Below, piece after piece: positions 2,116-63,221 of a DNA stretch of 64,000 nt. Location of the stretch: the NCBI GenBank assembly GCA_045837725.1, contig JBEWZL010000220.1:1-64000 (forward strand), given 5' to 3'. The stretch's first letter is position 1. Every line of letters begins with the position of its first letter. The stretch is from Vermamoeba vermiformis. Lineage: Eukaryota. The position numbers and the translations under genes were made by a program. Below the pieces are notes generated by a model, which was not told the DNA's origin, did no database searches, and saw only the letters and a program-made list of their open reading frames with translations.

Positions 2116-2149
2116 CTCTTCACTCAATTGTTGCACTGATGTATTGACC

Positions 2150-3245: not shown

Positions 3246-3260
3246 TCCAGAGGATATTTC

Positions 3261-5822: not shown

Positions 5823-5837
5823 TAGCAAACCAGAACT

Positions 5838-39534: not shown

Positions 39535-40479
39535 ATGCTGCCGCAAACAGTTAACCAAGTGCAGCCCTCGGCGCGAGGACAAACAGATTTCGCGCAATAC
39601 ATCCGAAAGATTTTTCATTATCATCAAATGGACATTGAATATACGTTATGGCAAATGTTTCATTTGTGCGTTGATCCCAAGAAAGTGTAAGTCTCTTTAA
39701 AATATTTTAATTACAATTAAAATTACAAAAATTCGAAAATAATTTCCAATTAATTTTAATGCCGTTACATTCACTCAGTTACAACACTGCGCGCTATCAT
39801 AAACGTAAGTACATATTATTAGCCCAGTCGCGTGCTAATCCAAGTCCTCAGAGACGAAGAACCAATGGGCGCGCGATGATCCAGCCTTTGTAGCGCTCTT
39901 GTTGCTATTTACCGCCGCGGCCTCGCTGTCGTATGCTGTCGCGTACCACGGCACGAGCTGGCGCGTGGTGTCACTCATGTTCTGGACCGTGCTGGTCGAC
40001 TTCTTGGCCCTCGGACTGCTGATTGCCACCACGACTTGGTGAGTGTTGCTATTTATGGCAAGGTATATCACGTGATAGCTGACAGCAGTGCCAGGTGGCT
40101 GGCCAACAAATATCTGCGCGTGGAGAGTTCAGTGCACACGCACACGGTGGAGCAGAGTGTGGAGTGGCTGTACGCGCTGGACATTCACTGCAACGCGTAC
40201 TTTCCCTTATTTGTACTGCTGTATGTATTGCAGTACTTTGTCGTGCTGGCACTCACCACGCCCTCATTCCTCACCACACTCATTGCCAACACGCTCTACT
40301 TGCTCGCCTTCAGCTACTACCACTACATTACCTTTTTGGGCTACACTGCGCTGCCGTTCGTGCAGCAGAGCGTGACATTTCTATATCCGGTGCTGCTATT
40401 AATAGTGCTCTACGTGCTGTCACTCGTGTTCAACTTCAATCTCACCATTGCCGTCATCAACTTCTATTTTGGGAAATAA
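39535..40479 (+). CDS. UNC50: UNC-50 family Golgi membrane protein
   Basis: QMDIEYTLWQM, Y.KQTKNQWARDDPAF, VEWLYALDIHCNAYFP, YYHYITFLGY. Confidence 0.95.
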
Positions 40480-40682
40480 ACTCTTGTTCATAGTTCACTG
40501 AACGAGTGTCGCGCCAACACCGCTGAGTGGTGGGAACTCCCACGTGACTAAAAATAGACGCAAAGTTAAACCGTCATTTTTCAGCGCGAGATTAATTTCA
40601 GTTTTGTTGTGCACTGAACACCAGAGGTCCCTCCTATTAGTGTTATATATAATCAGCACCACATTCATTCAATCAACACAGT

Positions 40683-42420
40683 ATGGACAGCGAAGACGCG
40701 TTAAAAAAAGAAGAAGAGCGGTTGATGCGCGCGATCAGTCGTCAAGGCAGTGTGCGCACAGGAGCGATTAAAACTGCCCCTAAAGTCGCACCCAAGCCCG
40801 TTGAGACCCCCAAAGTGACCCCGCCAGCCAGCAACAGAAACAGCGTCTCGTTCTCGCGCAGTGCTAGCAGATTGAGCAGCTCGCTGTCCGCCGAAGAGCA
40901 GCACAAGCTCGAGCTGGAACTGCAAGAACAAGAGCGCAAGCGAGAGGAGGAGCGCAAGACCTTGGAACGATTGGACAGCGCGCACTTCAAGAAGAAACAG
41001 CACTCGAAGGACTGGTTTGATATTGAGTTCAAAGACGAGGACGATACACCTGCTGCGAGCACCAACAACACTAGTGTGCAGGTAATGAAGTAGTGATCGC
41101 TCGAGAATTCAATTCCTCAAAAATAATTCACCAAAAATTATTTAATAATATTTCTCTTATTTATTATATATTGTTATTACAATAATTGATTTCACTGCGC
41201 CAACTACTGGTGCTATTCATAATGACGGTATGCCACTATACCTTTGATATTAATGCACGTACCAGTCGGTGCTCTCAGTGCCCAAGGTCGAGCCAGTCGT
41301 GACTAGCAGCACCGTGACCAAACCTGTCGCTATTAATAGCAGCAACAACAATATCAACAACCAGAGCAGCACGGTGAAGAGCACTACTGTACCTAGCACC
41401 ACTGCTGTCAGTCACACTGCTGTACCTACCGCTACACGCAGCGCTATTAATAGCAGCACAGCCCCCACCGTCACTACACACAGCACTCCCAAAAATAGCA
41501 CGTCTATAAATAGCACCCCCAGCAGCCCAGCAGTCCCCCAGGGCTGGGTGAGTGACATGGATCAGCTCATCAATTCACTCGCCACTCTCGGCTCTGGTGT
41601 CACGCCCCGACACAAATCTCCGCAAGAGATTGCACTCGACACCTCCACCACCACCCTCCGTTCACTGAAATGGAACTTTGCAGCACCTCTGCCCGAGCCC
41701 CGTCACGCGGAGCTGGGAGTGTGGATCAAGAGTCTCGGAGCGGACCTCCGACAACTGCGCGCGATCCTCGAGTCCGCCACACCGCAGCACAGCGCATTCC
41801 CGTACGTCACGTGCGCAGGTGTCACGCAGTCCCTCGTCACCGCCGTGCTCGACTCACTCGCCCTCGTCACTGCTGCCGCTGACAGAAAGGAAATTTCCAC
41901 CGCACTGCTGGCCCTGGTAGACCGCACGCTGGACTGGTTCGAAGCGATGGGCCGCGACAGCAGCGACGCGACAGCACTGCGCGACAGCACGGGCGAGGCA
42001 CTGACAGCCCTGGTGCGCCAAGTGACAGCTGTCATCAAGCGTCAAACCGAGCACGTGACCAGCAGCACCGCGCAGCAGAGTGTCAGTGTGCCAGCAGTGC
42101 CCGCACAGAGTCGTCAAGCAGTGGTCAGTGTGGTCGAGGAGTGCGCGCGACATGCGGAGCTCATCTCCGAAACACTGAAATCTCCGCCCTACAATCTCGA
42201 GCAGTTCAAGGCGCAGTTGCACCAGTTGGTGGCTGCTGTCAAGAAGATCGATCCCTATCTCACGCGCGAGGGTGATCGCGAGACAGTGGTGCAGTCCACC
42301 AAGCACGTGCTCGAGATGGCGATTGAGCTGCAAACTGCGCCCGATCAGTCACCGCTGCCCGTGCTGACTGCGATCAGCGAACTGTTGCGCGCCCTCACCG
42401 CTGCACTGCGGAGTCAGTAG
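40683..42420 (+). CDS. Unknown protein: charged N-terminus, S/T linker, C-terminal amphipathic helical bundles (talin/vinculin-like, tentative)
   Basis: Two exons (intron ~41082-41265). The C-terminal half has repeated amphipathic helices. Confidence 0.65.
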
Positions 42421-42518
42421 ATAGATATGCTTAGTTGTTCGGCATGATGTACTCGCTATAATAAATGACTTCCGTGTAAGCAGCGCATTCAGTTTACGAA
42501 TCTGTTCGCGTGCACCAC

Positions 42519-45195
42519 ATGACGCGTCTATATTGTGTGTTATATATTGTACTGGCACTGTGGGCGACATTAGCGAGTGCTGATGATGGGCCAGTCGCAG
42601 CACCGCTCGTCGATGAAAGCAAATTTCCAGATTCGAATCGGACTTGCGAGGACGGGATCAGCCCTCGTTTTGCAGCACTGGACTACTGGTACATATCTAA
42701 CTGCACTACATTGGCCAATCAATCAGTGCTGTTCTTCATTCTTGTGGTACGTGATTTTATTTTAATTCTTTATTATTATTTTTAATTTCTGAATAATTCA
42801 CTACTATCAATAATAATAATAATATATATTTATGTGCACAATTTAAATATAAATGGTGCGTGTATGAACGTGCGAGTCCTCAACACTGGACCTGCACCGA
42901 TATGACACTTGATTGCTGCGTCACTTGTAATGCTGCGCTTTGTACCGACATAGCTCTATATATATCACGCACTATAGACTATAATTACTATTGATACAAC
43001 ACCACTCACCATTACACATGCCATCCACGCACTAACCTCGCCAGTCCGCGTGGTTCATCCTGTTGATGTACTTGCTCGTCTCCACCACCGAAGAGTACTT
43101 CTGCGCGGCCATCAGTCGGTTCACTGAACGGCTCAAACTCTCCAACAACTTGGTGGTAAGTCATTGCCTAATTTGGACATGTGCTCGTGCTCACCACCCA
43201 CCAGGGCGTCACGTTCTTGGCCATCGGAAATTCAGCTCCCGAAGTAAGATCGATTTCCTAATAAGGAAGTCATGTGTGGCTGACACGCGTTCTAAAAATA
43301 GATCTTCACTACACTCCTGGCGATCAGGGCCTTTTCCCACTGGGACGAGTGGCAACAAGATGACAGTAGCGACACCAATCACGTGATCGGCACTGGCGCT
43401 TACGTGGCAGTGGGCACTGTGATTGGCTCGTCGATGTATGTCCAAATTAGGCAAGTGTCGCAATGTACTCACGCGCTAATTTTAGGATCTGTTCGACGCT
43501 GCTGCTCGCTGTGTTGACCTTATTTGGTAACAGCGCCAAGTATCAGACACCGAACACGAGCTTTCTACCAGGGTAAGTGACACTTTGACACGTGATTTGA
43601 TTGACACGTGTCACATTATTTTTCACGGCGTGTCAAACAGTGACTGACACATTGCAAACAGCATGCCCGAAGTGACAAGTCATCCAGCGATGCGAGGTGA
43701 GTGCTTCAGTGAACGAGCAGTTGCCTAATATAGTCACCTAACCAAATATAGACGTGGCCATGTTCTTGGTGTCCATCGTCGTGACAGTCGTGCTGTTGAC
43801 AGCGGTGGATCTGCCCCTCGTGTGGAAGGGTGTCATTATGGTGGTGCTATTTTTAGTCTATCTCGCCGTGGTGTTGGTGGCACGTCACGTGGCACAGACG
43901 CAGAAGGCCAAGCGACGTCAGTACTTGGGCATTCTCGACACCGCTGACGAGTCGCTGTTTGACGCGCCGAATGCGGAGATGAACGACTACGGCATCGACG
44001 ACATTCTATTTTTAGCCAATCGACACCAGCAGCAACACCCGCTCGTGCTGTCACTCAATGCTGACCCGCAGTTTGAGGGCGCACGTGACTGCAACTCTCG
44101 CATGCGCGGCACGTGGGACAGACTCGTGGCAACTGTCGCGTGGAGTGACAAGGTAAGCGCTTGATTGCCTAATTTGGACAGCGCTGATCACGTGACTAGA
44201 CCCTGGGCGAGCGTGTCGTCTTCATTTTGACACTTCCCGCTGAACTCGCGCGTCGTGTCACCATCCCGCCCCTGTCAGAAGTGCGCTGGTCCAAGATCCA
44301 AGCGGTCATTTCGCTCACTGGCGGACCTCTTTTCCTTTTATGGGCACTCGAATGTACGTCACTTGCCTAATTTAGACATCTCTGACCTTTTGCATTTGCA
44401 GCTTTTGCCGAAGAGATCGATGTGGGTCTGAACATCAAATTTCCTTATTGGTCCATCGTGCTGGTGGTCGGTGCTATATTTAGCACCATCGTGTTCTTCA
44501 CATCACGTGACTTCAGACCCCCGACCTACTTCATGGCACTGGTCGTGTTCGGCTTTGCAGTGGCCTCGGTCTGGCTCTACGTGCTCGTGCGCGAACTGCT
44601 CGGCGTCGTGGTGCTGTACGTGCAGTGCAGTGTTTGACACGTGTCACTGACTGACTCTCAATTCCCCAGGGCCATTGAAACCATCGAGTCCGAGCGCATG
44701 AGTGAGATGAGTGACGGCTATCCCTCGGCACTGTGGGGTCTGCACTTGTTGGCCTGGGCCACGGGTCTGCAGGACATCATTGCCAATGTCTTGCTCGCCT
44801 CCCTCGCCCTGCCCTCCATGGCTGGTACGTCACGTGATCTATTTCTCCGCACCTATCTCCGCGGTCACTAACTGAATTCGTTGTTTGCAGTGGCCGCAGC
44901 ATTTGCAGCCCCGACCATGGCCCTGCTGATCGGTCTCGGTGTCACGTGCATCGTGGAAGGTGTCAAACACTATCCCGCACGACACCTCGTCATGCTCGAC
45001 AACGCGCTGCTGGTCGGATTCGTGCTCTTGTTCCTCTCGGGCCTGGTCTCGCTCGTCTGGGTGCCCCTCGCCGCACGCATTCCCGCCAAGACCTTTGCAG
45101 GCGTGCAGCTCGTGTTGTACGTGCTGTTCGTGGTGTTCACCGTGCTGGTCGAGTTCAGATATTTGTTGCCCAATCCGATCTTCACGCTGCAGTGA
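42519..45195 (+). CDS. Cation/Ca2+ exchanger (CCX/NCLX-type)
   Basis: EEYFC..I....ERLKLSNNL.GVTFLAIGNSAPEIF (alpha-1), TIPP, GLHLLAWATGLQD.IAN (alpha-2), AAFAAP..LLIGLG. More than 10 introns. Confidence 0.88.
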
Positions 45196-45472
45196 ACCTG
45201 CCGTTCTGTGAAATGCTTTTTGTGAATTATGTAGATAGATAAAACATCCTTATCCAGCACTGTCTGCTTCTAGTCGAGGTCAATGCGTTCAATCGGATCC
45301 ACCGTCACGTGGTGGGATTGTCACGTGACTCCATCGACAAATAGTGTCGTGCCGGGGCATTCTCACAAAAATCGCGGAGTGAACAGCACGGTCAGCTCTA
45401 CAAAAATTGAGCATTAATTATTGCGCATTAGTACTTGTCACATTAATACACATCGCAGCTGCACGCGTAACA

Positions 45473-46389
45473 ATGGATCCACAAGCTAAAGCAAAGCAAG
45501 CAGCCAAACAATTAAATCTCGACTGGGATTCAATAGCGAATATTTATCTAATAGGCAGTCGATTGTGGGGCACATTCACCGCGCAGAGTGACTTTGATCT
45601 GCTGATCGTGCTCAAAAGCACCAACAACAAAAAACAGCTCAAAACCACCCCTAATAACAGCGCTAAGCACACTAAAAAGGCCGCGCATAATAATAACAAC
45701 ACTAGTGATGAAGCGAGTGGTTCGCACCGCGTAGTGCACGCAGGTCAATTCGACGCACTGCTCTATGACGAAGAGCTCTACATCCAGCGGTAAGTAGCGA
45801 CTGACCGTGCTATTATTATTATTATTAGTATGCATATAGTGCACTATATCCGCTATATTCGCCCTTCCAACACCTCGCACTCACAGCCCAGTAGGATCAA
45901 GCAGTACTCGTTCTTGGAAATGCTCACGCTGTGGATACCAGCTGCAAATATCTGGAAGCAAGAGATTGATCCGCGCACGTACTGGCTGCAAATCAACCAG
46001 GGCCCTCACGCGACACAGCTCTGGACCAGCACCACCGAGATGATTGAGCGGGACATGCGCGTGGCTCAGAAACACTTCGAGAAGGGTAATTGACACGTGT
46101 CAGTCACAGTTTGACACTTTGGATGACATTTACCTAATTAGGAAGTAAAGATCGTGCGGCACGTGTCATCGGCTGCACTCTGCGTGTGGCTCAATTTGCA
46201 GCAGACATTGCCGAACAAGGTCACGTGACTGACTTCCAATCTGCAAATGAAATGATCAGTGCGCTCTACCAGGGCCTCGATCAGCACGATTGGAACACGT
46301 GGCGTGACACGTGGCGCGGCACATTGCGTGCACACTTGCAACGACTGCAAACACGCTGCGAGGCTATTTTGGGTCGTCCGCTACAGTAA
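45473..46389 (+). CDS. Pol-beta-superfamily (minimal) nucleotidyltransferase
   Basis: IYLIGSRLWGT....SDFDLLIV (hG[GS]...DxD), candidate third Asp in QFDALLY, helical C-terminus. Three exons. Confidence 0.8.
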
Positions 46390-46561
46390 CAGTGCCACTT
46401 GCCTTATTTGTACATTTGTAATATACTTGCAATTAAAATCAGCTCTTCGTGCCTCTGCCAGGGCTCTGTCACTAAAAATAGTTGCTGAGAATTTTAAGTC
46501 ATTCTGTCACACAGCTCAGTAGCAACACATAATATACATAGACATAGATAAAAAAAGACTA

Positions 46562-47682
46562 ATGAGTGACACGAGTGCACAGTACGAGTCACTGCTCGCT
46601 GACGGCAGTGTCTCCAAACAAGTGATCAGATCGGGAAGGCTAGTGAACCAGGGTGCGCGTCCCGAGTCTGGCTGGAATGTCGGAGGTACTTAATTTATTA
46701 TAATAACACTTTATAGTGAATAATAATAATGCATTGAGCACTTGGTAATAACAGTTGCACGCTTGGAAAATAACAAAAATTATTTTGCAAGTAATTATTA
46801 TTTTATTATTATCTGCAATTGTTATTACATCATATGCCCACTATACGACTACGCTATTGCTATGGCATCTAATATTGCCGTATAGTGCACTACGAGATGT
46901 GGTTACAAGACGCAGACACATCCACGCCCATTGACTCCACCGCACAGCGCGGAATATTTCAATTTGAACTCGGTGCTGGCACTGTGATCACGTGTCTTGA
47001 TCTCGCTGCGAGATCGATGCAGCTCGGCGAAGTCTGTCACGTGATTGCAGCGCCACAGCACGCATTTGGCAAGCTGGGCCTGTCCCTCGCAGGTGTCACT
47101 GTGCCACCCAATGCGAAGTTGAAGCTAAAAATAGAACTCGTGCAGGCCACGCCCGGCACGCAGCACGTGACAGTTGCAGCAACTGATCGGTTGACAGCCG
47201 CGACAGCAGCCAAAGACAATGGCAATGCACGTGTGAGCAAGAGCGACTTCAGCGCAGCACGTGACTGCTATCACGAGGCACTCAATGTGCTCGGTGACGT
47301 GGCACTCGACCCTGTGGAGGACGAAGCTAAATTTAGAACTCTGCGCGGTCAACTCTGGTCAAACTTGGCACTCTGTGAATTGAAATTGCATAATTTCAGC
47401 AAAGCTATTTTTAGCTGCGACAAGGCACTCGTAAGTCACTTGCCATATATAGTAATGCGACACTAGCTGACACAGTGCCAGTCCTATGATCCCAACAACG
47501 TCAAAGCCATGTTCCGCAAAGGTCAAGCGTTGGAGTACAGCGGAGAATTGCGCGCAGCACGTGATCAGTACAGCAGCACGTACCAGCTGTCGCGCACAGC
47601 CGAAGTGAAGACAGCACTCGAGGGCGTCAAGAACAAACTCGCTGCCAGCTCTGGGGGCCTGCGCGGCATGTTTGACAGCTAA
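46562..47682 (+). CDS. FKBP-type PPIase with TPR domain
   Basis: DGSVSKQVIRSG, VHY, F.FELGAG.VI..LD....M..GE, VPPNAKL...IEL, TPR (AKDNGN, SNLALC.LKL, NVKAMFRKG). Confidence 0.92.
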
Positions 47683-47859
47683 CCACTGCTGACTTTTGTA
47701 CATAATAATAAATAAATACTGCAGCTGTTGTTATCGACGCGTGTATAGTGTGGTCAGTCGCGATAATAAACTACTGCCCCATCAAGCAAATATGACTACA
47801 CTAAGTGTTATTTATTTCCTCGCAGATCCGAGCACAAGAGAGGTCGGACAGCAGAGTAC

Positions 47860-49131
47860 TTATTTGTCAGTGGGCTTCTGATTGACGACGTGTGATTGGC
47901 TGTATTGCGACACATCGACACCTTGCGCCTTCTCAGCCTCAATCTGCAGCTTGATCCAGTCAAAGGTGCGCTTCAATCCGTCCTTCAATGAGATGCTCGG
48001 AGCCCAGCCCAACTTCTCGCGAATGAGCGTGTTGTCGCTGTTACGACCGCGCACACCTTCAGGGCCCGGGATGTGATGCAACTTGGTGCTGTTCTTCTTG
48101 CCCGCGAATTCGAGCACGAGGTGCGCCATCTCGTTCATGTCCACCATCTCTTCGCTGCCAATGTTGATCGGCTCGCGCACATCGCTGCGCATCAAGCGCA
48201 ACACACCCTCCACGCAGTCGTCGATGAAGCAGAAGGAGCGCGTCTGCTTGCCGTCACCCCACATCTCAAACACATCGCCGCACACAATGGCCTTGCGACA
48301 GAACGCTGCTGGGGCCTTTTCGCGCCCACCCTTCCAAGTACCGTGCGGGCCGTAGATGTTGTGGAAGCGACCGAGGCGGAACTCAATGCCAAAGTCCTGC
48401 AGTCACGTGTTAGTTGATTCTCGTTCACTGAATGGCCATCGAGGCACGTGACCGAACTCTGGATCAACTCCGAGAGGGGACAGGAGGACTTACCTTGTTG
48501 TAGTATTTGCAGAGCTCTTCAGTAACAATCTTTTCGAGACCATAAGCGTCTTGAGGTTGAGCGGGCCATGCATCTGACTCCTTCAAACCGGGATTGGCTG
48601 TTTCCAATTGACGGTATTCGGGATAAATGCAAGCAGAAGAGCTGTAGAAGAATCGCTTGACTGAGCCAGAGCGACGAGCAGCCTCGACCATGTTGAAACT
48701 GAATTGAAACGCGGGTGTCAAAAAGAAAGTTTTTCTGCAATAGATTCCGACGTTTCAAAAATAAAAAAGAAAACAAACAAACCGCAATGTAAAATTATGA
48801 AATTGTAATATTCGCTATAATTATGCTCATACCTGATCATAATGTTGTTGTACAAAATAACAGAGTGGTTGGATTGAATGAAACCCATACCGCCCATATC
48901 CGCAGCAAAGTCGTAGACTTCATCGATACCCTGGCACATCTTCATGCATGTGTCCAAATCACGCAGATCCACTTCATGGAACTCGTCGCATATTTCGTTG
49001 TCGTTGAAGTAGTGACCCTTCTTCCAGTCAGCAATACGGACGAAGTGACCTTCAGCCTTGAGACGCTTGGCGACGTGACTGCCAATGAAACCACCACCAC
49101 CAGCGACGAAAATACGGAGTTTAGTTGCCAT
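47860..49131 (-). CDS. GME: GDP-mannose 3,5-epimerase
   Basis: GGGGFIGSH, AADMGGMGFIQSNHSVILYNN, SSACIYPE, AWPAQPQDAYGLEK, RFHNIYGP.GTWKGGREKAPAAFCRK, GPEGVRGRNSDN. Confidence 0.95.
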
Positions 49132-49296
49132 TTGTTCTGAAACGAATTGCAATAAAACAAACTGACTTTCAGTTTTGATTTTGACGAATTGTGCTGCCGA
49201 GTGGGCAGGAGATGCTGGTGCGGTGGGCAGCAATCGGACAGACAACAAAAGTGACAAGCAATCTAGTTCAATAACAAACGAGCACCCTGCACCTTC

Positions 49297-50637
49297 ATGG
49301 CGACTAAGAAAGATTATCCGACCTCAGCCGAGGAGTACGAGCTGTTGGAGCTCATCGGCTCTGGCAGTGGTGACAAAACCAAGGTATACAGAGCCAAAGT
49401 CAAGAAGACAGGCGAAGAAGTTGCAATTAAAATGATTGACTTGGAGAATTATGGTGTGCATCAATTTGAAACTATTAGGGTAAGTTAAAAAAGATATCAA
49501 TTTAATTTTCCATTTCGAAAAAAAATTAATTATTAGCCGTTCTTTGTGCTTGATGGCATGACACGATATACTACATTTGTTAATATCTCACAAATAACAG
49601 AAAGAAATTCAAATCATGAGTTTATGTCAACATCCAAATATTGTAGAATACTTTTGTAGCTTTGTACAAGACACAGCACTGTGGCTCGTCATGAGGTTGA
49701 TGGCAGGTACGTTATTAGCATCTACTTGATGACATGGTGCACAACGAGTACTTACTCCGCGCAGGATCGTGTCTGGACATTATGCGCTACGCGTACAAAG
49801 ACGGATTCAAAGATGAAGCGCTGTTAGCGACGATTTTATACAACGCACTTGTAGGCATTCAATATCTGCACGAACAATCGCGTTTGCATCGCGACATCAA
49901 AGCAGGCAACATTCTGATCGAGACAGATGGCAGCGTGCGACTCGGTGACTTTGGTGTCTCTGCCGTGCTCAATTCGCACGATGAGAAGCGCACTACATTT
50001 GTGGGGTGAGTACTTGTCCTATTGCACACTTCGAAGTTCGCTGACGCACTCGCTGCACAGAACACCGTGTTGGATGGCACCCGAAGTGTTAGATCCCGAA
50101 GAGTACAAAGGCTACGACAAGAAGGCAGACATATGGTCGCTGGGCATCACGGCGATTGAACTCGCGCAAGGTGTGCCGCCCTATGCCCGCGAGGCCCCCA
50201 TGAAAGTGATCATGCTCGTGCTCTCACGGCCCTCACCGCACTTGCCAGCTGACAGCGCATTTTCCAAGAATTTTCACGAATTTATTGCTGCCTGTCTCAT
50301 CAAAGACCCGCAAAAACGACCCACGGCGCAACAACTGCTGCAACACAAGTTCTTGACGCAACGACGCGACGCGCAGTACATCACCGAGGCACTGCTCACC
50401 AAACTGCCGCTGATTGGTGCGCGCTATCGACAGCAGAAGGGCACCGCTGCCGCTAGTGACGCGGAAAAGCTCCGTGCACGCCTGGCCTCGCTGTCCGCTG
50501 GTGACGGCAATCGATCGCGCACCAACAGTGCGACACCAGCACGCGACAGCAGTGCAGTGAGTGACAGCGGCGAGTGGGACTTTGAAGTGGACGATCACAC
50601 GGGCGAGAAGGTCAAACGTAAAAAAGTTGCAAAGTAA
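49297..50637 (+). CDS. STE20-family Ser/Thr kinase (FRAY/OSR1-like)
   Basis: [60 protein letters not shown]. Confidence 0.93.
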
Positions 50638-50807
50638 ATGTTCTATTTATAGCTGCTGTCGTACTCTTACCAGCGCGGTACTGTGTTGTGTTGTGCTGTC
50701 ATCTACGAGGCATCGTGTGCTTAAGTTTGCGAGTGTGCACTGACGAACAGTGGCAATCACTCGTTGAGTGCTGTTTGCATTGCTCATCCATTCAGTGAAC
50801 GCACTGT

Positions 50808-52286: not shown

Positions 52287-52521
52287 GAAGGTACTTGTAT
52301 GATTAAATTATCGGTCGTTGTTTTGTGTTGGCGCGGCGTCGTAATCTTAAGGAAATTAAAATATCCTTTTCTAATTGGTCGGATAATTTTATCAATTTTA
52401 TTTCAAACCACGTGACAATTTTTTCGGTCGTTCGTCTTTTGCCCTCTTTCTGTTCCTTCTTGCTTTTCTTATTAGCTCCACCGTGGTATTTATCAACAGA
52501 GCCCTTGTCCAATAATATAAA

Positions 52522-53405: not shown

Positions 53406-53625
53406 AACAGTTCTGTTGCTCAAATACAATACGAATAATAACAACTGCAAGTGTGGGCACTGCCGTTCTTGGCACCGAGAAATAAAACAAAAATCTCAAA
53501 AATACTTGCTTTGTAGAGTTGTATTGAGTGTGTACTCGTATGAATAGTGCGGAGGTGTGACACCAAAATCTCTTTCGATTTCTGGTTGCGGCTAATTTTC
53601 TCTGAATCTGACGCTGACTAACACA

Positions 53626-54599
53626 ATGGACGAGGAGAGTGGCCGCGGAGAACGCAAATTCAAGAAGGAAAAGAAGCACAAGAAGCATAAGAAGCGCGCT
53701 AATGATGTTGAAGAGGATCCGGTTGATTCTGAACGAGGTCCCGATCCACAGCAACAAGCCAAAGACAGATACAGCCAGAGTGCGCCAAAAGATATCGAGC
53801 AGAAGCAGGTCATCAATTGGGAGGACATTAATTATCCTCCCGTACTGCGCCTCTTCCATTACAAGTAGGTTATATAGAGATTTTATTTTAATTTTTTCAA
53901 TTTTCCATTTATTAACATTTCAAATCCAGTTATCACGAACTCAAGAATCCCATCGAATTTCAATTGTGTCAATGGGAACAATGGATATTTATATTCCAAA
54001 GTGCTATCTTAATGTTCAATCGTAAGTGATCCAATCTTTCAAAGCAGCCCACGTGAATCTAACCGAAAACATGTTAAGTGGTTGTACAAGTGGTGCTCAC
54101 TGCAGCTGGAGCCCCCGATGCATACACGTACATTATCGTATCATTCTTCTGTAAGTACAGTGCTTCATAAGCGAGTTTTCCATTGAGTACGCGCTAACAC
54201 TCAGATGCAGTGCTGCTGTTGTACTCCGTGATTGGTATATTCGTGCACGTGTGGGTATACAGAGCACTCGCCCTCGAGAGTGGCGTGCACTACATCGTGT
54301 GGCTGGTGTCGCACTTCATCTGGACTGTCGCACAACTCGTGCTGGCTCTGGCGCACGGCCAGAATGTCGAAGGATTCACCAACATTACGCGCGCACGTGC
54401 ACTCGACGGCGCACTCGGCTCGTTCTGGCTCGCAACGACCATCATCGAGTCCGTCGCGTGGCTCGGCTGTGTGGGCTGGGCAGTGGCACAGGGCGTGAAG
54501 GCCATTCAGCACTTCAATTCAGGGGCATTCAAGGGCGAGGTCAAGGCCCCCAAACTCTTCTCGCGCAAACAGATGATCAAGTCTGTGCTGGGATTCTAA
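53626..54599 (+). CDS. SCAMP-like four-transmembrane protein
   Basis: NYPP..RLFHY..EL (cf. SCAMP NWPP), YRAL..ES..Y after TM2 (E-peptide-like), four hydrophobic segments. Confidence 0.6.
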
Positions 54600-54719
54600 T
54601 AATACAACCCCGTGCTCGAGGAGGAGCTGATTTGTACATACTTGCACGTTTCGCTTATTTATTGCGATGTATAGTTTATAAAGTAAATCATTGTGAGAGC
54701 TTGATCTGTACTAATTAGT

Positions 54720-57270
54720 AGCATCAGGCCTTCATGTTGTTGCTTTGGAAGCTCGTTCTACACTTGACATTTATTTCAAACACGATTTTGCACCATAATA
54801 TCGGCTGGCTAAGGGCCCTTTGTGGATGCTGACTGGAAATTCCTCTTAATACTGTACCGAAAAGTAATGGATCTGATGGTGAGTGGACAGTGTGTTGGGA
54901 TGAAACAGAGATGTTTTGTTTAGGTAATTCCGTGGAGGTTGTCTTGCTCAATTTGAGCAGGACGTCTGGATTTGGACAGGGCGTCTACTAGTAGTAGTAG
55001 GTTTCTCTATCTCCAGTGGCTGGAAGCTGATGTGGATGGAAAGTTCATGCCTAGTAGTATCATATATGCTCTACCTCCGCAGCAAACAGAATTGAATTTC
55101 GTTAATTACTAACTTCAGTGGATGCCCCGTCCGCATCTGGACGCCTTGTCCCTGGATGGACACCCTGTCTATGGACGGACGTTCCCTCTAATTTGGGCAG
55201 GACGACCTCCCTTGTTCAGCAAAAACAATTACCAAGGTGGACATCACAGATCAGGCAAAAATTGGATGTCCGCCTAGGGATTGAGCTGAGGAAAGTTCCC
55301 AGTTTTTGAAATCAAGCTCCAAAGAATAGAATGGCGGATGTCCCATCCACCAAAAATTAGACGTCCACCATGGACCACACGTCCGGCGACCATACATTAT
55401 ATAGTACAAAGTTTTTAACAGGATTTCTATATGCCATGTATGTGGTTAAGCATATCCCTTCCATATAAAAAGGTTTGCCACCAAGCTGGACAAAGTTACA
55501 ACATAAAAAAGTATGAATGATGCAAAAATTTTTGGACAGTTAGGTGACAATGAATTGTAGCCAAAGTTCAGTGGCATAAAATGCGTATAGTTGTGTTGTA
55601 CACAGTATGTGCTGATGGATGGGTTCACACTTAATGCTGAAAAATTACAAATTGCTGTCACTACAATATCTTTGACGATTACTCATATCATCTTGTTATC
55701 TGGTGATAGTTCTATGTATTTCCAAAGTTTAAATGGTTTTGCAGCATACAGAACAAAGTTCTGGTACTTAAGTTCTTTGCAGAACAAAGACATTTTCAGC
55801 CTCCAGCGGCTAGCCCAAAGCCTTCTGATGCCAATAGTAGCCTTCTTGGGCCCGCTGGTGCTAATGGCAAAGTTTGGTTTAAGTTGGTAAATTACTAACA
55901 TCAGCGGACGAAGTGACCCTGGACAGATGCAATGTCCATGGATGGACGAAAAATTTTTGGCAGACAGGATGTCTGCATGCATTCGTAAAAACGTGCAGTA
56001 TTGCTGTACTAAACCACATTATTTAAATTCTATGGTATTCAGCTCTCCCGAAATCCCCCAAATGCACAAATCACAGTCTATACCTTTGTGATTACTGCAT
56101 CTCACGTTATAGTACTGTACTAGCTACTGGCAAGTTAAAAGGGTCAGCAAAAGAACAAATTTCTTTGGACGAAGTTCTTTAAAGAACATTGCCATTTTTA
56201 GGGGCCCATAGCCTCCTACCAACAGCGTTTGCTGCTGGTGCTAATGCCAGAGTTTGTTTAAACAAAACGAACACTGGCAGGTAAGTCAACACATGTGCTC
56301 CTGAAGTGTGTGATGTTTACAAAGTTTGTGGCCCATGAATCCTGTCTGGCAAAAATTGGACGTCTGCCATGGACTGCACGTCCACCGACCATACATCAAG
56401 TAGTATGATGCGTTTGATAAGATTTCTATATAGTGTATATGATTAGGCATATCCCTTCTCAGAAAAAGGGTTGCTCAATACTGGACATCATTTAAAATAT
56501 AAAAAGTATGGATAATGGAAAAAAAGAACAATGCCATTTCAGCCTCCAGCGCTTAACCCAAGCATCCTGATGACAGAAGTAGTACTTCTTTGGCCGTTGG
56601 TGAATGGTTAGAGCGCTCTGTCCAATTTGGACACCCTTCTCAGCTTGGGCAACCTCCCACACAGACAAAAAAAACTCTTGAATGAACTACGCAACTAAAA
56701 ATTGGTAGACAAAGCCTGGGCGCCCTTTGGATTTGGCCCCTCCAACAGGGAGTGTTCTATGCAGAGCGCCTCTGCTGGTGGAGCACTGCGAATCCAAGGA
56801 GGTCGGCCAAGTTGGCCAGTGTGGCCGGCCTGGCCAGTCCGGTATGTAGGTATGGTACAAGGCACCAACTGGCGCCCCTCCCGTCAACACAGCAACAACT
56901 TTATTGAGTCCTGCCTTGTAAGAAGTCACAGTATTATAATGGTCTCCTCTCACCTAGATCCCTCCGAACAGTGCACCAAAAAAACAGCCCAGAATAAATG
57001 TTCAGCCATTTGAAAACCAAATTACCTTCAGCCTCTGACACTACTCAGCTGTGAATTTCGCACAAGACCATCTATCAACTTGATTATTCATTTTACCTGT
57101 TGAACATAGCACCAAATAGCCATAACGTCACAGCCTAATTGAGCAATACTCGCAAGTAGTCAAAACATCGTACAAGGGTATGCTGAAAACAAGGGGTTAT
57201 TTAAGAGAACTATACTACCCTTCTTTGATGAATTCCGCAGGTTTATTTTTGTAATTTTTAGACAAAAAGC
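54720..57270. mobile_element. Degenerate transposon-like island (CpG-poor, repeated GGACGTCC-like motifs, internal diverged duplication)
   Basis: No credible gene model. Diverged direct repeat 55351-55860 versus 56350-56602. Many ggacgtc/ggatgtcc/ggacatc variants. Confidence 0.55.
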
Positions 57271-57279
57271 TGCCGTGCC

Positions 57280-58988
57280 TTATTTTTGCAGGGCACTATT
57301 CACGTGTTGATGCAATGTTTGCAGCTTGTCGTGCTCAGCTTTGAGCTCCGCTTGACGCTGCTCGCTGTTCTTGCGCTTGAGGTACTGCGGCGCGAATTGG
57401 AACAGACTCTGCGGTGTTTCACTGAACAGCGGAGTAACAAAGCGGCGCTTCTCTTTGCGGCGCTGCAATTCTTCCGCGGGCAGATACTGTGCCATCGATT
57501 CGCGACGTGACACGCGCTTGATCTTCACTTCGCGCACCACTTTGCGCTGTTCGCTCGGAATCATCACGTGACTGGGATTGTAGCCTAATTTGGTAAGTTC
57601 GGCAGGCAGTTCGGCGTAGAAATTTCGCACGTCAGTGGCGAGAGCACGTGCATTGACACGTGAGTGCAATCGTGCGAGTCGGTCGACCAGGGCCTGAGCG
57701 CGGTCACGCAGCGCAGTGGCAGGTGGCACCCAAGCGAGTTCAGCGACGAGTTGTTTGAGCGGCAGTTCCAAGATGGTGACAGCAGGGGTCGGAGGCTTGG
57801 CGAACTTGTCAATCAGTGCCATCGTGTCGCTCACCAGCTGCCAGTTGTGCACGCGCACAGCCAGACGTGTCAGCACGCCCCAGTACTTCTCGTCGTGCGC
57901 GCTCAGTTGGTGCACGCGCTCTTCAATCGTGTGCGCGTTGACTTTCTTTGACCACACTGCCGCAGAGAGCACGTGACGCAGACTGGCACGTGACAGGCGC
58001 GCACCTTTGTGTTCGAGGCGCGAGTAGTAGCGCACGAGGGTCTTGGCGTCCCCGGCGAGTGCGGCACACTTGAGCACGGCGAGCAGATTGTCGCGCGAGG
58101 GCAGCAGCTGGTGCGGATAGAAGCACTCGTACACCTCCAAGCACTGCGCGATCAGTCCTGACTCTTGATAGGCGAGCAGCAGTGCGTTGAGGGTGGTGTG
58201 ATCCGGTACAAAAGTGCGGTGCATGTTGCTGCTGTCGAAGATGTGCGCCTTCTTCATGTCTTGGTAGATCTGGCGGGTGAAGTCGCGTTAGTAGGGAGCG
58301 TTGCGCGTACAATATTGCACAAATGTAATGCGTAATTGAATTCACTGAAAAGCAGATGTGGCATTACCGTGTCAGCGTAATTGAACTTCTGATGCAGGCC
58401 ATAGTACACCAGCAGTGCATCGTAGACTAGCTTGTCGTTATATATAGCTTGTTGTTGGCCCTTCAGCGTGGTTTTCAAGTCCAAATACGTCACCCAAGCT
58501 GCATCGAGTTCGCCGCGCTTCAAATAGCCAAAGATCAATTGTCTCGCGTCCTCCAATGAGGGTAGTTTACTATGCGCCATCTTATTCTCGCGCGTTGCGT
58601 CCATCAGCGCAGTGAACTCGCTGTCTGAGAGCTGTGGCATCTGACTCTCGATCCAAGCGACGAGTTGACTGTGATCGGGCAACACTTGACGCACTCTATT
58701 GGCCTCCTCGGGACTGAGTTCACTAATAGGCTTCAAATTCGAGGGCAATTGCACTGCTGGACTCGCGCTGAACATTCGTCGCTGAATCTGCTGCAGATTA
58801 TTCTCCACGACTCTGGTGCTATTATTGTGATGTGTTTTGACGTTGTAACAAATACCAGTATTATAAGGGGTATTTTTATGATTTTTAGAATAATTTCTGC
58901 CGCAGTTGAACATAACTCCAGTCGCAGATCTGGGAGTGGATGCAACTCGCACCACTGAAGCTAATAATGCGCCAGACCGTTGCAACAT
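57280..58988 (-). CDS. Mitochondrion-targeted PPR-like protein
   Basis: R/S-rich presequence. PPR-like units VYDALLVYYG...IYQDMKK and PDHTTLNALLLAY..SG....CLEVYE. An intron ending ...ctactaac...cag near 58270 joins the two ORFs. Confidence 0.8.
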
Positions 58989-59160
58989 ATTTGAGCACTA
59001 GTGTACGAATATATGCACAGATTTTGTAGCGGTCTAGTGCTGGCGTGTCAAAACAATAAATAAATAATAAATTAATAATTATTTCTTTTTTGTCCGTCCT
59101 GTTAGCAACACCACAGCTCGTACAAGATCACTTGCGAGTGCATTACACTACACATTTAAT

Positions 59161-61456
59161 ATGAATACGCAGCCAATGGCCGCTGCGCAAGTAGAGACTA
59201 CGCAAGTCTCGTTTCTGATCGACACTACATTCGCCCTCAAAGCGTGGTGGGAGACTGTAGGACTCGGCATTGTATCTGAGCTCGTCAAGTACGTAGTATA
59301 TATATATACTATTCTTGCCGCTCTGCTCAATCAGTCCTTTGCTTGGATCAGCATCCAATGCATGCTTACAATTCAATTCTTTGAACGAATCATTCATGAA
59401 CGGCACTGTACTGCACTAACACGCACCTATTCTCAGAGCTCTCTCTCCCAAGACACCTGACAACCCCACGCCTGGTGCTCCACCGCCCAAGCAAGTAAGT
59501 TGCACCTAAAAATAGCACTTGCCCAATATAGTCACGCCAATCACGTGCCTAATCTCGCGCGCAGATGCAGAACAAGCGCGTGGAGTGGAGTGTGGTGCTG
59601 TACCGCTCGCCCATGCCGTGGAGTGACTTTGTGTGCCAGGCCAGCGAGCTCGGCACCGATCCCAAGCGACTGCAAACCATCTTCCAGGGCATCAAGTTCG
59701 AGGGCGGTCATTTGCAGCACTTTGCATTCACTGAAGCACTCTGCGCCGCACACAACTCACTCACGCGCAATTCTCCGCCCAACAAGCGCGTGACAGCTCG
59801 TCACGTGATCATCATTTGCAGCACGGGACCGATCGGCATTAATTGTTCCGCTCCTGGCTGCAAATATTATGACACGTGGCATGAACACGTGGCACGCATC
59901 AGCAAAGACCTCGGTGCCAAGCTGTCACTGCTGTCACTGGCCAACACGGAGGACTTGCGACAGATGCTCAAAATGGTAATGCAAGCATTGCAAGTATTTC
60001 ACGCACTGACTGTCATGTAGGTGCGTCCAACCGACTCGTTCACTGAATTGAAAGGAGCTTACGCGTCATTTGACCCGTCCATTGAGAGTGAGTGATCACG
60101 TGCTGTTGAGATGCATTGCCTAATTTGGACATATCTATTTTTAGTACCGCAGTCCCTCATGCCGCAACACGCCGTGCCCATGCCCGTAGCCCCCGCACCG
60201 CTGAGTGCCACCAATGCACCCAAGCCCGTGCACATGACACCTGTCACACATGTCATGTCCAGCACGGGGGTCAGTGTGCCTATAAATAGCACTGGCAATC
60301 CTGTACTTGCCAATTCTGGCAATCCCATGCTCAACCCCTCGCACATGCCCGGACGACCGAGCGGTTTTCAACCGACCCCGACATTTATGCCGGGCAGTGC
60401 GGGGCCCATGATGACTTTCCCGCCCGGGCAACCCGCGCCATCGAAATTTCCCGAGATCAAACCTCGTCCCGTCACTAATTCTCCGGGCATGATTCGTCGG
60501 AGCAATACCCCGACACCGCAGAATGCACCAGTGGCACTTGCCAAATCGGGAGGGGTGATGAATGTCGGTCAGCCTTCCTTATATGGCAATGCAGGGCCTC
60601 GTCCAGCTCTCGGCGGAGATTTATTGGCCGCGTACCCCGCACAAGCAGTGCGGCCAGTGTGGATCGGAAATCTCCGCTTGAGCTCGCAGACCCTCAACAT
60701 GGCGTGTCGCGTGCAAGCAGTGCCAGCGAACCCGAAATCTCCGGGAGATAGCAGCGGAGAATTAAGTCTGACGGAGTGGAACAGCGACCTGTTCATCACG
60801 CAATTTGTTCCGCTCGATGCTGTCAAACGTCTGACGAGCTCCACGACACCACGTGTCATTGTGCGATTCATGCCGCACGAGATGCAGTACGTGACTGACG
60901 ATTGCCTAATATGGTAATAAGTGCTGATCGATCTGACAGGGACAAGCAACCATATTTGGAAATGGTCAATCAGTTCAAGAGCGGTGCGGTACGTGTCAAA
61001 TGCCGTATTCAGCGAGCACTTGCCTAATTTAGTCATTGATTCCTAGTTTGGACTGGTGGAGCTGCAGACCAAGGCAGTGCTGATCGGACTCACCGCACAG
61101 CCCGCGCGCACGTTCATGGGACTCGTGGTGCCGCGTGAGTCCTGGCTGCGCGCACAACAAGCGACCAATCAGAGCCAAGCCAATCTCGCGCTCGCACCCA
61201 ATCTCGGTGCTGCTCCGAACCCTGGTGGAGGTGTCGCGCAGTTCCGCCCCGCACTCAACCAGGGCCAATTCCAGGGCCAGCAGTTCTTCACTCCTCCGAA
61301 CTTTGCACCGAGTAAGTATTGCACGAATTTGGCGCAAAGACTGGTGACTGACTCGTTTTTCCTAATTTAGAACAACCAGCGTACAACATGAACATGCAGA
61401 ACACGGGTGTAAATTTAGGCAATATTAATTACCGAGGACCCAATTCATTCCAATAA
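59161..61456 (+). CDS. MED25: Mediator subunit 25 (VWA + ACID/PTOV-like)
   Basis: VSFLIDTT..L..WW, WSVVLY, I.FEGG...A.TEAL, HVIIICS.GP (Med25 VWA), Pro/Met linker, VWIGNL...W...L.I..F (ACID-like). Confidence 0.78.
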
Positions 61457-61787
61457 TGACTCGTAACTGAGTCTGTTGCCTTATTTGGACAATTAACCTT
61501 TTTTGTAAATAAACTGTACAATTTTACTGTCGTTACGTACACGGCGCTATTTTTATATACAACGAGTTGATCACGTGACTTTGGAAGCCAGCAGTGACGA
61601 GGTTCGGGGAATTTCCGCTTGAGAATTCTTGAGCGGAGAATTAGAGCGGAGATAATCGTCGCGCACACTGTCCATTAATCCGCCCTTGTTGTCACGTGCT
61701 CGCGTGCCAGGCGTCAGCACAGGAATATCTGCAATGATTGAGTGAGCATGATCAGAGTTCGATGAGTTATTGCAATTATTCGCAGTG

Positions 61788-63221
61788 TCAAATCCACCGC
61801 TCTATAAATAGAACAGAGCTATAAATAGCAGATGACGTACCCACAGGACGAGGTTCAATCGATTCTATAATTGGCGCGCAGTTGAATAGCGTGCCGTCGA
61901 TCACGTGCTCCTCGTGCCGTTCATAGAACAAAATGTAGCCAGTCTGCGACGAGGACTCGTATGGCGAGCCAAAAATAGAACTGAGCTGACTCTCTTCCAT
62001 CTTGTGCACGTGCTCGTCGTCGAACAGCAGCCAGTGTGCACCGGTACGCACCACTGTGGCAGGGGTTAGTGGCTGTTGTATGTCACTAGGGTCACTATTA
62101 TACATCACTATTGTATCACTAGGGTCAAGATTGTCATATCACTATTACACATCACTATTATATATCACTATTGTCATATCACTATTGTATATCACTATTG
62201 TCCTATCAGTCGCTACTGTACCAGCAATGTAGTGGCCCTGGTTGGGTCCCGCACCGAGGTGTATGATCACGGCGCCGAGTCTGTAGTGCACGCCACTCTG
62301 CTTGAGCGCGAGCGGGAATGCCACGCGGTAGTTGAGCTTGGTGTAGCGCTCAATCTCTTCCAGGAATTTGAAGCGCTTCAGCTGCACCACCAACACGCGC
62401 GGCGGGGACTTGATCCGCAGTCGTTTTTGTGCCTCTTGAAAGCTGTGACACTGCTCGCACCAGAACTTGTTTTGTCGCGACAGCGTCTCAATGCGACTGA
62501 AGTTGTTTAAGCACGCCGTCAGCGAGCTGTTCTGCTCCACATCCACACTCAGATCAATGAAGGATTCGTCTTTGCTCGTGATCTGAACAGCATTAGAGAC
62601 CTGAGTAGTAAATTTGGAGTACTTACAGTCTCGCACATCATGCACTTTGTTTCATTAGTCAATACGCCCTCAAAATACTCGTGCACCAGAGTTTTGATCG
62701 GATCTGACAACAAACCATCAATTTCAATGCAGTGGCGTCAATAGTCTAATTACACATACCTTTTGAGTCCTCTTTCTGCTCTTTGCGCGCATCACGCTCC
62801 ATAGTCTCTGAAATTGCATTGAGAAGGTAGATGAGAAATTCGTGTGCATCTTGTTGATTGAATCCGCTGAATAATACTGAAAAATATATTAATATTCGTC
62901 TAAATGCGACTAAAACATCTACGCACCATTCTCAGTCTTCAAGCGCTGAATGAATTTGCGTGGGCCAATCACGCCCGTGCGTCGTTTGTGCGAGCCAATC
63001 TGCGCGTAGAGCTGTGCGAGTGTGTGGAGCAGCGAGTCACTATTAGGGCGCTGTTCGACATAGTGCAGCAGCGCAGTTCTGAACTCGCAGCAGTAGTACA
63101 AGGCCTGCAGCACCGAGTTGCAGTAGCAGGTGTTGCCGTAGTTCTCGAGGCCCAAGTAGTGCTCGTTGTCTGAGCTCTGCGGACCTAGTTCACGCTCGAG
63201 CTTGGTGTCTGTGTTGCCCAT
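61788..63221 (-). CDS. Ubiquitin-specific protease, USP12/46 (UBP3/4) type
   Basis: MG..., GLENYGNTCYCNSVLQALY, QQDAHEFL, FIDLSVD, EAQKR, QLKRFK, HLGAGPNQGHY, WLLFDD, GYILFY. Confidence 0.95.
62076..62205. repeat. Intronic ~13-bp tandem repeat (atcactatt core)
   Basis: About 9 imperfect copies inside the USP intron. Confidence 0.85.

Follow-up and report, generated by a model that had tools for sequence, protein, structure and literature searches.

The word CTA(W)4TAG, the core of MEF2-type MADS-protein sites, is in real excess in the window analysed here, which is the whole 64-kb stretch of DNA. Inside genes it overrides codon choice and locally alters the encoded protein, which suggests an unusually strong DNA-level force. 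The window contains 22 exact matches, whereas 100 dinucleotide shuffles of it average 0.61 and never exceed 4. A preliminary description of positions 40,396–61,828 had listed 18 sites against an expectation of 1 per 65,536 bp at uniform composition; its arithmetic is correct and every listed site is an exact match, although 47405 and 50643 were missing from within that range, as were 121 and 30873 from outside it. The excess is specific to this word: among 64 palindromic NNN-W4 controls CTA ranks first (z 20, the next being 3.3), and all 22 CT(W)6AG words in the window take the CTA(W)4TAG form. Placement on 21 hand-built gene models assigns 11 sites to coding sequence, seven to introns and four to DNA outside the models (Table 1), with densities of 1.38 per kb in introns and 0.38 per kb in exons; the pair at 61802 and 61819 is counted as intronic on a predicted 39-nt in-frame intron and would otherwise be coding. 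A coding excess is visible in 12 of the 21 modelled genes and in none of the other nine. The CpG-poor inserts at 3,400–6,000 and 54,700–57,200 are almost without the enriched words.

No common pathway is obvious among the site-bearing genes. The gene at 40683–42420, in which three of the coding sites lie, belongs to no Pfam family and has no Atlas hit; its fold matches are weak and vinculin/talin-like (best E 0.02). The exchanger-like gene carries so many MADS-type sites for its 2.7 kb that they look like more than regulation would need.

Table 1. Host genes and putative factor sites in order of position. L001 and L002 are relative loci; P0134–P0136 are MED25 orthologues.
Feature	Position	Strand	Context
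MEF2-type site	30873..30882		ends predicted intron of C2-PBD-WH2 gene
Six GACA-NN-TGTC dyads	31125..31452		proline-rich exon, C2-PBD-WH2 gene; five read as T-P-V peptides
UNC-50 gene	39535..40479	+	4 exons
MEF2-type site	40396..40405		coding, last exon of UNC-50; CTA TTA ATA codons within L-L-I-V; identical in L002
MEF2-type site	40548..40557		203-bp gap between UNC-50 and next gene, beside CACGTG box; CC-form near match in equivalent gap of L002
Gene of no Pfam family	40683..42420	+	2 exons; product has a charged N-terminus, an S/T-rich linker and helical bundles
MEF2-type site	41330..41339		coding, A-I-N-S, low-confidence linker
MEF2-type site	41444..41453		coding, A-I-N-S, linker
CC-form near match	41489..41498		coding, P-K-N-S, linker
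MEF2-type site	41504..41513		coding, S-I-N-S, linker
TGACA-GC-TGTCA dyad	42023..42034		coding, V-T-A-V-I; also in L001/L002
Cation/Ca exchanger-like gene	42519..45195	+	11 exons; 14 MADS-type sites, 11 CACGTG
Extended SRF/Mcm1-type CArG box	43164..43179		intron 43156-43204; CArG kept in L001 with changed core
MEF2-type site	43292..43301		last 10 nt of intron 43244-43301; RNA joint; retained in L001 with different A/T core
MEF2-type site	43476..43485		last 10 nt of intron 43436-43485; RNA joint; lost in L001
CArG box	43518..43527		coding, exchanger, T-L-F-G; identical in L001
MEF2-type site	43847..43856		coding, exchanger, L-F-L-V; L-F-I-V in L001 (Leu/Ile change), CTA(W)4TAG word preserved
MEF2-type site	44006..44015		coding, exchanger, L-F-L-A; identical in L001
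CArG box	44334..44343		coding, exchanger
MEF2-type site	44474..44483		coding, exchanger, A-I-F-S
CArG box	46133..46142		spans modelled intron/exon border, nucleotidyltransferase gene
MEF2-type site	46472..46481		172-bp gap ahead of FKBP-TPR gene
FKBP-TPR gene	46562..47682	+	3 exons
MEF2-type site	47125..47134		coding, FKBP domain, L-K-I-E
MEF2-type site	47327..47336		coding, FKBP-TPR gene, A-K-F-R
MEF2-type site	47405..47414		coding, TPR, A-I-F-S
MEF2-type site	50643..50652		between two convergent genes, just 3' of the stop codon modelled for the kinase
CArG box	57584..57593		coding, PPR gene
MED25-like gene	59161..61456	+	8 predicted exons
MEF2-type site	59506..59515		within predicted MED25 intron
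MEF2-type site	60135..60144		ends predicted MED25 intron, directly after CArG box
MEF2-type site	60280..60289		coding, MED25, P-I-N-S; PINS kept in both covering orthologues, P0134 and P0135
CArG box	60577..60586		coding, MED25, S-L-Y-G; peptide kept or compatible in P0134-P0136
CArG and CArG-like cluster	60905..61036		boxes at 60905, 60950 and 61023, within introns and one exon of MED25
Ubiquitin-specific protease (USP) gene	61788..63221	-	convergent with MED25
Two MEF2-type sites	61802..61828		USP gene 3' end: predicted 39-nt in-frame intron, or last codons

Synonymous-codon shuffling, named beforehand as a control, does not give similar counts: 11 coding sites are observed against 0.26 expected (0/2000 shuffles). 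The codons that compose the motif are among the rarest in use (CTA 2%, TTA 5%, ATA 7%), and a strong force is therefore needed to place them. Comparison with relative loci (86% protein identity) extends the evidence from the one 64-kb window to 5.3 kb of orthologous DNA, where nine MEF2-type sites occur in 5,329 nt against 0.05 expected. Codons within motifs are identical in the relative in 11/11 cases, compared with 521/820 elsewhere (p about 0.007), and the rare CTA, TTA and ATA codons are kept in 7/7 cases inside motifs versus 4/8 outside. The site thus constrains codon choice inside coding sequence, and the early suggestion of a DNA-level force that overrides codon preference is borne out. 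As the proposed comparison of orthologues reveals, the relative keeps or re-creates the word, and sites have been both gained and lost between lineages. The L002 linker, which cannot be aligned with that of the gene at 40683–42420, has two exact sites of its own that read AKNS in place of AINS/SINS, and one new site in the relative is accompanied by amino-acid changes in a folded domain. Further orthologous DNA was found neither in viral contigs (MED25 alignment query) nor in prokaryote genomes (UNC-50 query). The organism is widespread, being present in nine studies.

The effects on protein sequence are more local than first proposed. Recurrent linker peptides do occur, as AINS, AINS and SINS in a stretch of the gene at 40683–42420 with pLDDT under 50 and as PINS in MED25, but 7/11 coding sites lie outside those linkers, in the UNC-50, exchanger and FKBP-TPR genes. 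Shaping of the protein is evident locally, in the linker and in residue changes in the relative, but is weak across the window: motif-compatible peptides number 11 against 7.2 (221/2000 shuffles) or 18 against 14.7 (431/2000), neither of which is significant, and a narrow peptide class, chosen post hoc, numbers five against 1.3 (24/2000 shuffles). The peptide excess is strong in one linker. Site excess and the codon style of the gene show no significant link among 17 genes (rho -0.44, p 0.08).

The original scope, restricted to MEF2-type words and linkers, proves too narrow, as at least three other word families are enriched alike. Synonymous shuffling leaves an excess of coding CArG boxes (5 versus 0.52 expected, 0/2000 shuffles), of coding CACGTG (51 versus 18.9, 0/2000) and of GACA-NN-TGTC (10 versus 0.2, 40 shuffles), and CC(A/T)6GG CArG boxes number 18 in the window against 3.7 by a third-order Markov model. 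There are 16 exact copies of (A/G)TCACGTGA(C/T), and the 16-mer of the CArG box at 43164 has further copies at 44165, at 60116 and, on the opposite strand, at 43439–43454. MADS-type sites and CACGTG are not placed together beyond chance (10/58 versus 10.5), so far as composite MADS/E-box modules were sought. Five loci in viral contigs match the CArG 16-mer; they were judged to be chance because neither an exact MEF2 site nor CACGTG accompanies them.

The core words of MEF2-type and SRF/Mcm1-type sites are CTA(A/T)4TAG and CC(A/T)6GG (PMC3640940), and the MEF2C motif appears as DCYAAAAATAGM (PMC13281843). The likeness to MEF2/SRF/Mcm1 sites covers these core words and also preferences that lie outside the search pattern. 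The base preceding MEF2 half-sites is G or T in 35/44 and C in 3/44, variants at position 2 are mostly C (7, with A in 2 and G in 0), and 10/22 sites have an AAAA or TTTT core, all in agreement with DCYAAAAATAGM (PMC13281843). Core and flanks together uphold the MEF2-class label for these putative sites. Among CArG half-sites, T stands at -3 in 30/36; T at -3 with A at +3 is presumably the extended Mcm1/SRF site rule, and a literature search for this flank rule found no paper. Judged from sequence, the flanking bases fit recognition by MADS proteins rather than hairpins, splice signals or mobile elements.

Sites are also zoned along genes. The first 500 bp are avoided both by MADS-type sites (3/48 versus 13.5 expected) and by CACGTG (6/66 versus 21.3). 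This zone of about 500 bp is richer in A+T, yet poor in MADS-type sites. The idea that abundant ApT in the 5' zone signals 6mA was dropped, because ApT per kb is higher but its observed/expected ratio is near 1, and because ApT content rarely tracks 6mA (PMC12695648). Nucleosome-like spacing is hinted at, weakly, at 156–164 bp in two of four motif sets (p 0.014–0.05), and is absent for MEF2 sites alone (0.29) and for CACGTG (0.59). A literature search found no description of an architecture combining a motif-free 5' zone with a motif-rich distal zone.

We lean towards the view that, in this very compact genome, selection maintains these words within gene bodies as sites to be bound by MADS proteins and other factors, and that they form a candidate intragenic platform. 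We infer the identity of the binding protein, the action of selection rather than drive, and a function, in the following terms. The MEF2-type sites would be double-stranded DNA targets of the organism's own MEF2-type MADS protein, which putatively binds them as one part of a set that includes SRF/Mcm1-type CArG boxes, CACGTG and TGACA dyads. Selection would create sites through point mutation and retain them within genes, as so compact a genome would leave too little room elsewhere (tandem and divergent intergenic gaps are 98–445 bp in the 36–63 kb region). Beyond the first ~500 bp they may form a regulatory or chromatin-organising platform, on which bound factors would set host-gene expression or arrange nucleosomes in the region where phasing from the promoter weakens. 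The requirement may be for one site anywhere in the distal zone; with no exact spot required, sites would turn over and settle at the cheapest places, namely short introns, splice acceptors that supply the TAG, synonymous codons, and tolerant linkers in which the residues are dictated.

The main rival, to which we give distinctly less credence, is molecular drive or a mutation/repair bias. Gene conversion or repair would then favour DNA occupied by any abundant factor, and the best sites of several factors would accumulate to no advantage in places that purifying selection tolerates, much like uptake sequences in competent bacteria. Drive would suit the joint elevation of several unrelated word families and their gathering in short introns, linkers and relaxed-codon genes, with the words, MEF2-type ones included, absent from the coding sequences of the ribosomal protein, epimerase and DUF1800 genes. 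Site gain and loss between lineages also suits it, since a motif-favouring drive yields conservation and turnover as well. We know of no eukaryotic mechanism for such a drive, and known hotspot drive erodes its motifs; the sharp 5' avoidance, moreover, requires an extra assumption. Bacterial uptake sequences likewise favour poorly conserved positions (PMC2817400), but they track preferred codons, whereas the present sites use the rarest ones. A related and rather unlikely possibility is a eukaryotic counterpart of those uptake sequences: a general force favouring factor-bound distal gene-body DNA, as a 'self' mark against methylated inserts or as conversion/repair drive, could write the best MADS, bHLH and TALE-type sites genome-wide, rewriting parts of the proteome.

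Other explanations are less probable still. Ordinary promoter elements could spill into the upstream neighbour gene where gaps are so tiny, and sites 40396, 40548 and 46472 do lie 283, 131 and 86 bp ahead of the downstream start codon. This is nonetheless improbable, as 17/20 sites in the range first described are 349–1,463 bp from the nearest start codon and dense clusters occur towards the convergent 3' ends of FKBP/epimerase, kinase/APH and MED25/USP, where no promoter follows. RNA-level signals (splice acceptor, CTAAT branch point or small hairpins) are quite implausible as the general cause. Five of the seven intronic sites, and so 5/22 overall, are the final 10 bases of an intron ending in TAG (spliced RNA contigs and reads confirm the introns that 43292 and 43476 end), the commonest CArG core includes CTAAT, and extended CArG boxes are sense in 11 cases and antisense in three. 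The sites do not reduce to TAG acceptors, however, a concern raised at the outset: 17/22 lie away from modelled acceptors, 11 of them mid-exon, and the acceptor-positioned sites are themselves in excess (5 versus 0.08 among 20 TAG-ending introns). In most introns that carry a motif, a distinct branch-like word lies closer to the acceptor, the identical CArG 16-mer is antisense in one intron, flanks extend the palindrome no further than one base (3, 3 and 4 of 22), and there is no Rfam match. It is very improbable that the words are relics spread by a mobile element or by a transposon that generates introns (MITE/introner), despite eight near-identical copies of a 19-nt CArG element, most of which sit in short introns. 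Close likeness spans only about 19–23 nt among the 20 largest of at least 60 repeat families, and neither terminal repeats nor target duplications were seen; coding sites arose by substitution in gap-free alignments with the relative, and intron positions are common to the window and L001 while intron sequence has diverged. We find it scarcely credible that selection acted on peptides, for instance phosphosites or N-S-T sequons, and produced the DNA match as a by-product. The pattern [APST][KI]NS does recur in the linker of the gene at 40683 in several lineages, as PINS does in MED25 orthologues, but the word is common to two reading frames and non-coding DNA, and residues change (I/K, L/I) while the DNA word is constant. 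Synonymous shuffling preserves the peptides and removes the excess, so peptide selection is refuted as the main cause.

The pattern has partial parallels elsewhere. MADS sites have mostly been studied in promoters and enhancers, whereas 18/22 putative sites here are in genes, exceed the codon-controlled expectation about 40-fold and avoid the 5' zone. In yeast, the general regulatory factors Mcm1, Cbf1, Reb1 and Abf1 position nucleosomes from promoter-proximal sites, and we take CArG and (A/G)TCACGTGA(C/T) to be the words of Mcm1 and Cbf1. The likeness lies in these word types and in the hint of 156–164 bp spacing, but the sites in the window occupy the distal parts of gene bodies, with a weak spacing signal. 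Stergachis (2013) reportedly described 'duons', factor sites within coding exons. HIP1 of cyanobacteria is a gene-enriched short word comparable to bacterial uptake sequences. The latter (USS/DUS of Pasteurellaceae and Neisseriaceae) resemble the present words in being short, enriched in genes and biased towards tolerant positions, and they shift peptide frequencies (PMC2817400). Unlike the present case, they are bacterial, one word per genome, linked to transformation and composed of preferred codons, while the window has at least four words of eukaryotic factor families, written in rare codons and zoned along the gene. Exonic enhancers of animals and plants share the placement of factor sites in coding exons and favour disordered segments, and they involve a minority of exons, with fewer motifs than intergenic enhancers (PMC13216554). 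Here 12/21 modelled genes of a unicellular organism have a coding excess, known from sequence alone.

In animals and plants, the case for real constraint by factor sites on codons and protein has had to rely on subtle statistics. The effect described here, of about 40-fold, can be seen by eye and followed to individual codon or residue changes between relatives. A gene architecture is also suggested in which the 5' zone is free of motifs and the distal zone rich in them. Should drive or self-marking be the cause, and not regulation, this would represent a new force in eukaryotic genome evolution.

The window contains 22 exact copies of the MEF2-type word CTA(W)4TAG, against a mean of 0.61 and a maximum of 4 in 100 dinucleotide shuffles. 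All 18 sites listed in a preliminary description are correctly placed and exact; four more, two within its range and two outside, had been overlooked. All 22 CT(W)6AG words in the window are of the form CTA....TAG, and only 8 more CTA-N4-TAG words contain a G or C at any core position. This is eukaryotic DNA whose introns are short and of the GT-AG type. Its source occurs in 20 of the 24 listed runs, from nine studies that include samples of water, biofilm and roots as well as RNA sets bearing other organisms' labels, and is thus a widespread microbial eukaryote, perhaps a free-living amoeba to judge by this ecology and by its genes. By 21 hand-made gene models (29,055 nt coding, 57 introns), outside of which lie ~30 kb of the window, a few genes included, 11 sites are coding, seven intronic and four beyond the models. 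At least 15 introns in 39.5–48 kb are confirmed by RNA joints; the remainder are predictions that rest on open frames and Pfam matches. Five of the seven intronic sites form the final ten bases of their introns. The sites at 61802 and 61819 are intronic only if a predicted 39-nt in-frame intron holds; otherwise the coding count is 13.

Within-gene shuffling of synonymous codons yields 0.26 coding sites against the 11 observed, with a largest value of 3 and none of 2000 shuffles reaching 11, which bears out the proposal that a DNA-level force overrides codon choice. CTA ranks top of all 64 palindromic NNN-W4 patterns (z 20, next 3.3; 500 shuffles), and the codons that spell MEF2 sites are the rarest: CTA (2%), TTA (5%) and ATA (7%). 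The sites do not reduce to TAG splice acceptors (many had been described as mid-exon), and acceptor sites are themselves in excess (5 vs 0.08 in 20 TAG-ending introns).

The feature is real, strong and broader than first described. Synonymous shuffles also reveal coding excesses of CArG boxes (5 vs 0.52), CC/CT hybrids (5 vs 0.49), CACGTG (51 vs 18.9) and GACA-NN-TGTC (10 vs 0.2); bHLH and TALE are the factor labels that we presume for the non-MADS words. Introns are enriched in MEF2 (7 vs 0.30), CArG (8 vs 0.26) and CACGTG (14 vs 0.53). Pooled coding excess reaches p ≤0.05 in 12 of 21 genes; the nine genes without it include a ribosomal protein, an epimerase, a kinase and the 5.8-kb DUF1800 gene, and the relation of motif excess to high-expression codon style is a trend only (rho -0.44, p 0.08). 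More coding words exceed synonymous shuffles, namely ATTTGCAG (10 vs 1.3), CGCGCA (77 vs 32) and CACTGC (60 vs 24), and for some of these words codon-pair bias may be the cause.

Taken over all modelled genes, the layout has two zones. The first 500 bp past the start codon, measured from hand-set start codons and not from transcription starts, are avoided by MEF2 sites (1/18 vs 5.1), MADS-type sites (3/48 vs 13.5) and CACGTG (6/66 vs 21.3). This zone has long introns rich in A+T (median 104 nt, GC 0.33), whereas later introns are short and motif-rich (median 55 nt, GC 0.44); a MADS-type site occurs in 16 of 35 distal introns vs 2 of 22 proximal ones. Of four motif sets, two show a spacing of 156–164 bp (p 0.014–0.05), which is absent in the remaining two.

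Scanning metagenomes yielded two orthologous loci among 229 candidate stretches; they overlap and represent 5,329 nt from one related lineage (865 of 1,006 residues identical), which carries nine exact MEF2 sites against 0.05 expected. The window also has nine in the covered region, three of them in a linker that cannot be aligned; there the relative carries two exact sites of different core, read as AKNS. Of the six window sites outside the linker, four persist: two unchanged, one with another core and one in which Leu and Ile are swapped within the word. A fifth corresponds to a CC-form near match within the same gap, which aligns poorly, and the sixth is lost. Found only in the relative are an intronic site, a site at an acceptor, a coding CArG that arose by TTG -> TTA, and, in the helical domain, a coding MEF2 site that reads ELLKIAP there vs ETLKSPP in the window; the residue at this position is S or T in three other relatives and I in one. 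Two of the four CArG boxes covered are lost or degenerate in the related lineage. With the 88-residue linker and the single altered residue set aside, codons within shared MADS-type sites are identical in 11/11 cases vs 521/820 elsewhere (p about 0.007), and rare codons are kept in 7/7 vs 4/8. One of these loci, L002, joins LUC7 and UNC-50 directly, and its difference from the window is a gene insertion, move or loss.

Features of the window and of the related locus L002
Position	Feature	Observation
121; 30873	MEF2 sites	outside the range first described
2120-3328	long tandem array	open frames on both strands; adjoins 3400-6000
3400-6000	second CpG-poor stretch	observed/expected 0.32
10806-16945	very long two-domain DUF1800 + DUF1501 gene	codons strongly C/T-ending; no motif excess; putatively highly expressed or acquired
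25952-27470	gene with long PGQ/GQ-rich repeats, then DUF4476 domain
27826-31740	WASP-like gene (coiled coil, C2, PBD, WH2 domains)	GACA-CC-TGTC dyad spells repeated T-P-V peptides
36501-39089	SulP transporter gene	between LUC7 and UNC-50
40683-42420	gene with disordered linker and helical bundles	no Pfam family; 9 proteins in representative library; possible vinculin/talin-like fold (weak matches, best E 0.02)
41430	12 nt in linker	missing from an RNA contig of run X5; just ahead of site 41444
47405; 50643	MEF2 sites	within the range first described
54700-57200	CpG-poor stretch (observed/expected 0.48)	nearly motif-free; degenerate duplication (period about 1 kb) and an internal inverted repeat; looks like a methylated mobile-element relic
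61802; 61819	MEF2 sites	in predicted 39-nt intron
62060-62220	predicted 168-nt USP intron	largely short tandem repeats
L002 1-900	LUC7 5' end	directly head-to-head with UNC-50

To judge by bases beyond the searched pattern, the probable reader is a protein acting on double-stranded DNA. T stands at -3 in 30 of 36 CArG half-sites, a feature of Mcm1/SRF sites, and one CArG 16-mer is present on both strands letter for letter; the flanks of MEF2 sites do not extend the palindrome. G or T precedes the MEF2 half-site in 35 of 44 cases and C in only 3. Ten of the 22 cores are A-runs, and variation at position 2 is mostly to C. These flank, core and position-2 preferences agree with the MEF2C motif DCYAAAAATAGM (PMC13281843). 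By sequence, the window's words pass as candidate sites of the MEF2 and CArG classes.

The sites had also been said to shape the protein through recurrent peptides. Four coding sites do spell AINS, AINS, SINS and PINS, the first three at residues modelled with pLDDT <50, but the remaining seven belong to the UNC-50, exchanger and FKBP-TPR genes. In three relatives independent of pattern discovery, the linkers hold six motif-compatible peptides vs 0.27 by residue shuffling, or 3 vs 0.18 and 4 vs 0.14 when either of two closely akin relatives is dropped; two distant homologues have none. The related protein P0121 has linker indels and changes, yet all four of its motif peptides persist. Both MED25 orthologues covering the position retain PINS. 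Shaping of the protein is thus upheld locally, but the window-wide excess of compatible peptides falls short of significance at 11 vs 7.2 (221/2000) and 18 vs 14.7 (431/2000); a narrow class chosen post hoc gives 5 vs 1.3 (24/2000).

Taken together, the enriched linkers of relatives and the non-significant window-wide excess place the effect mainly on codons, with residue effects real but local. Selection on the peptides themselves is disfavoured. RNA signals are likewise disfavoured, and Rfam gives no match. So are mobile elements; in the 20 largest of at least 60 repeat families, copies resemble each other closely over no more than about 19–23 nt. Promoter spill-over would fit three sites, but it leaves the clusters towards convergent 3' ends unexplained and is improbable. 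The main rival, a drive or repair bias in favour of factor-bound DNA, is a possibility to which we give limited weight. Excess, specificity, conservation, turnover and zoning of the sites are all observed, and we lean, with some reserve, towards selected sites for putative MEF2-/SRF-type MADS proteins of the organism and other factors.

No such pattern in a protist was found in a search of the open-access literature, which takes in few subscription papers. The phenomenon would operate much as exonic enhancers do (PMC13216554), and the words resemble bacterial uptake sequences, although unlike these they use rare codons and are several (PMC2817400). The sites lie towards the distal part of gene bodies, in a compact genome with intergenic gaps of 98–445 bp. 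If they are indeed selected for factor binding, the bound factors would act on expression or chromatin of the host gene. The requirement would be for sites somewhere within a zone, which would explain both their turnover and their use of cheap positions.
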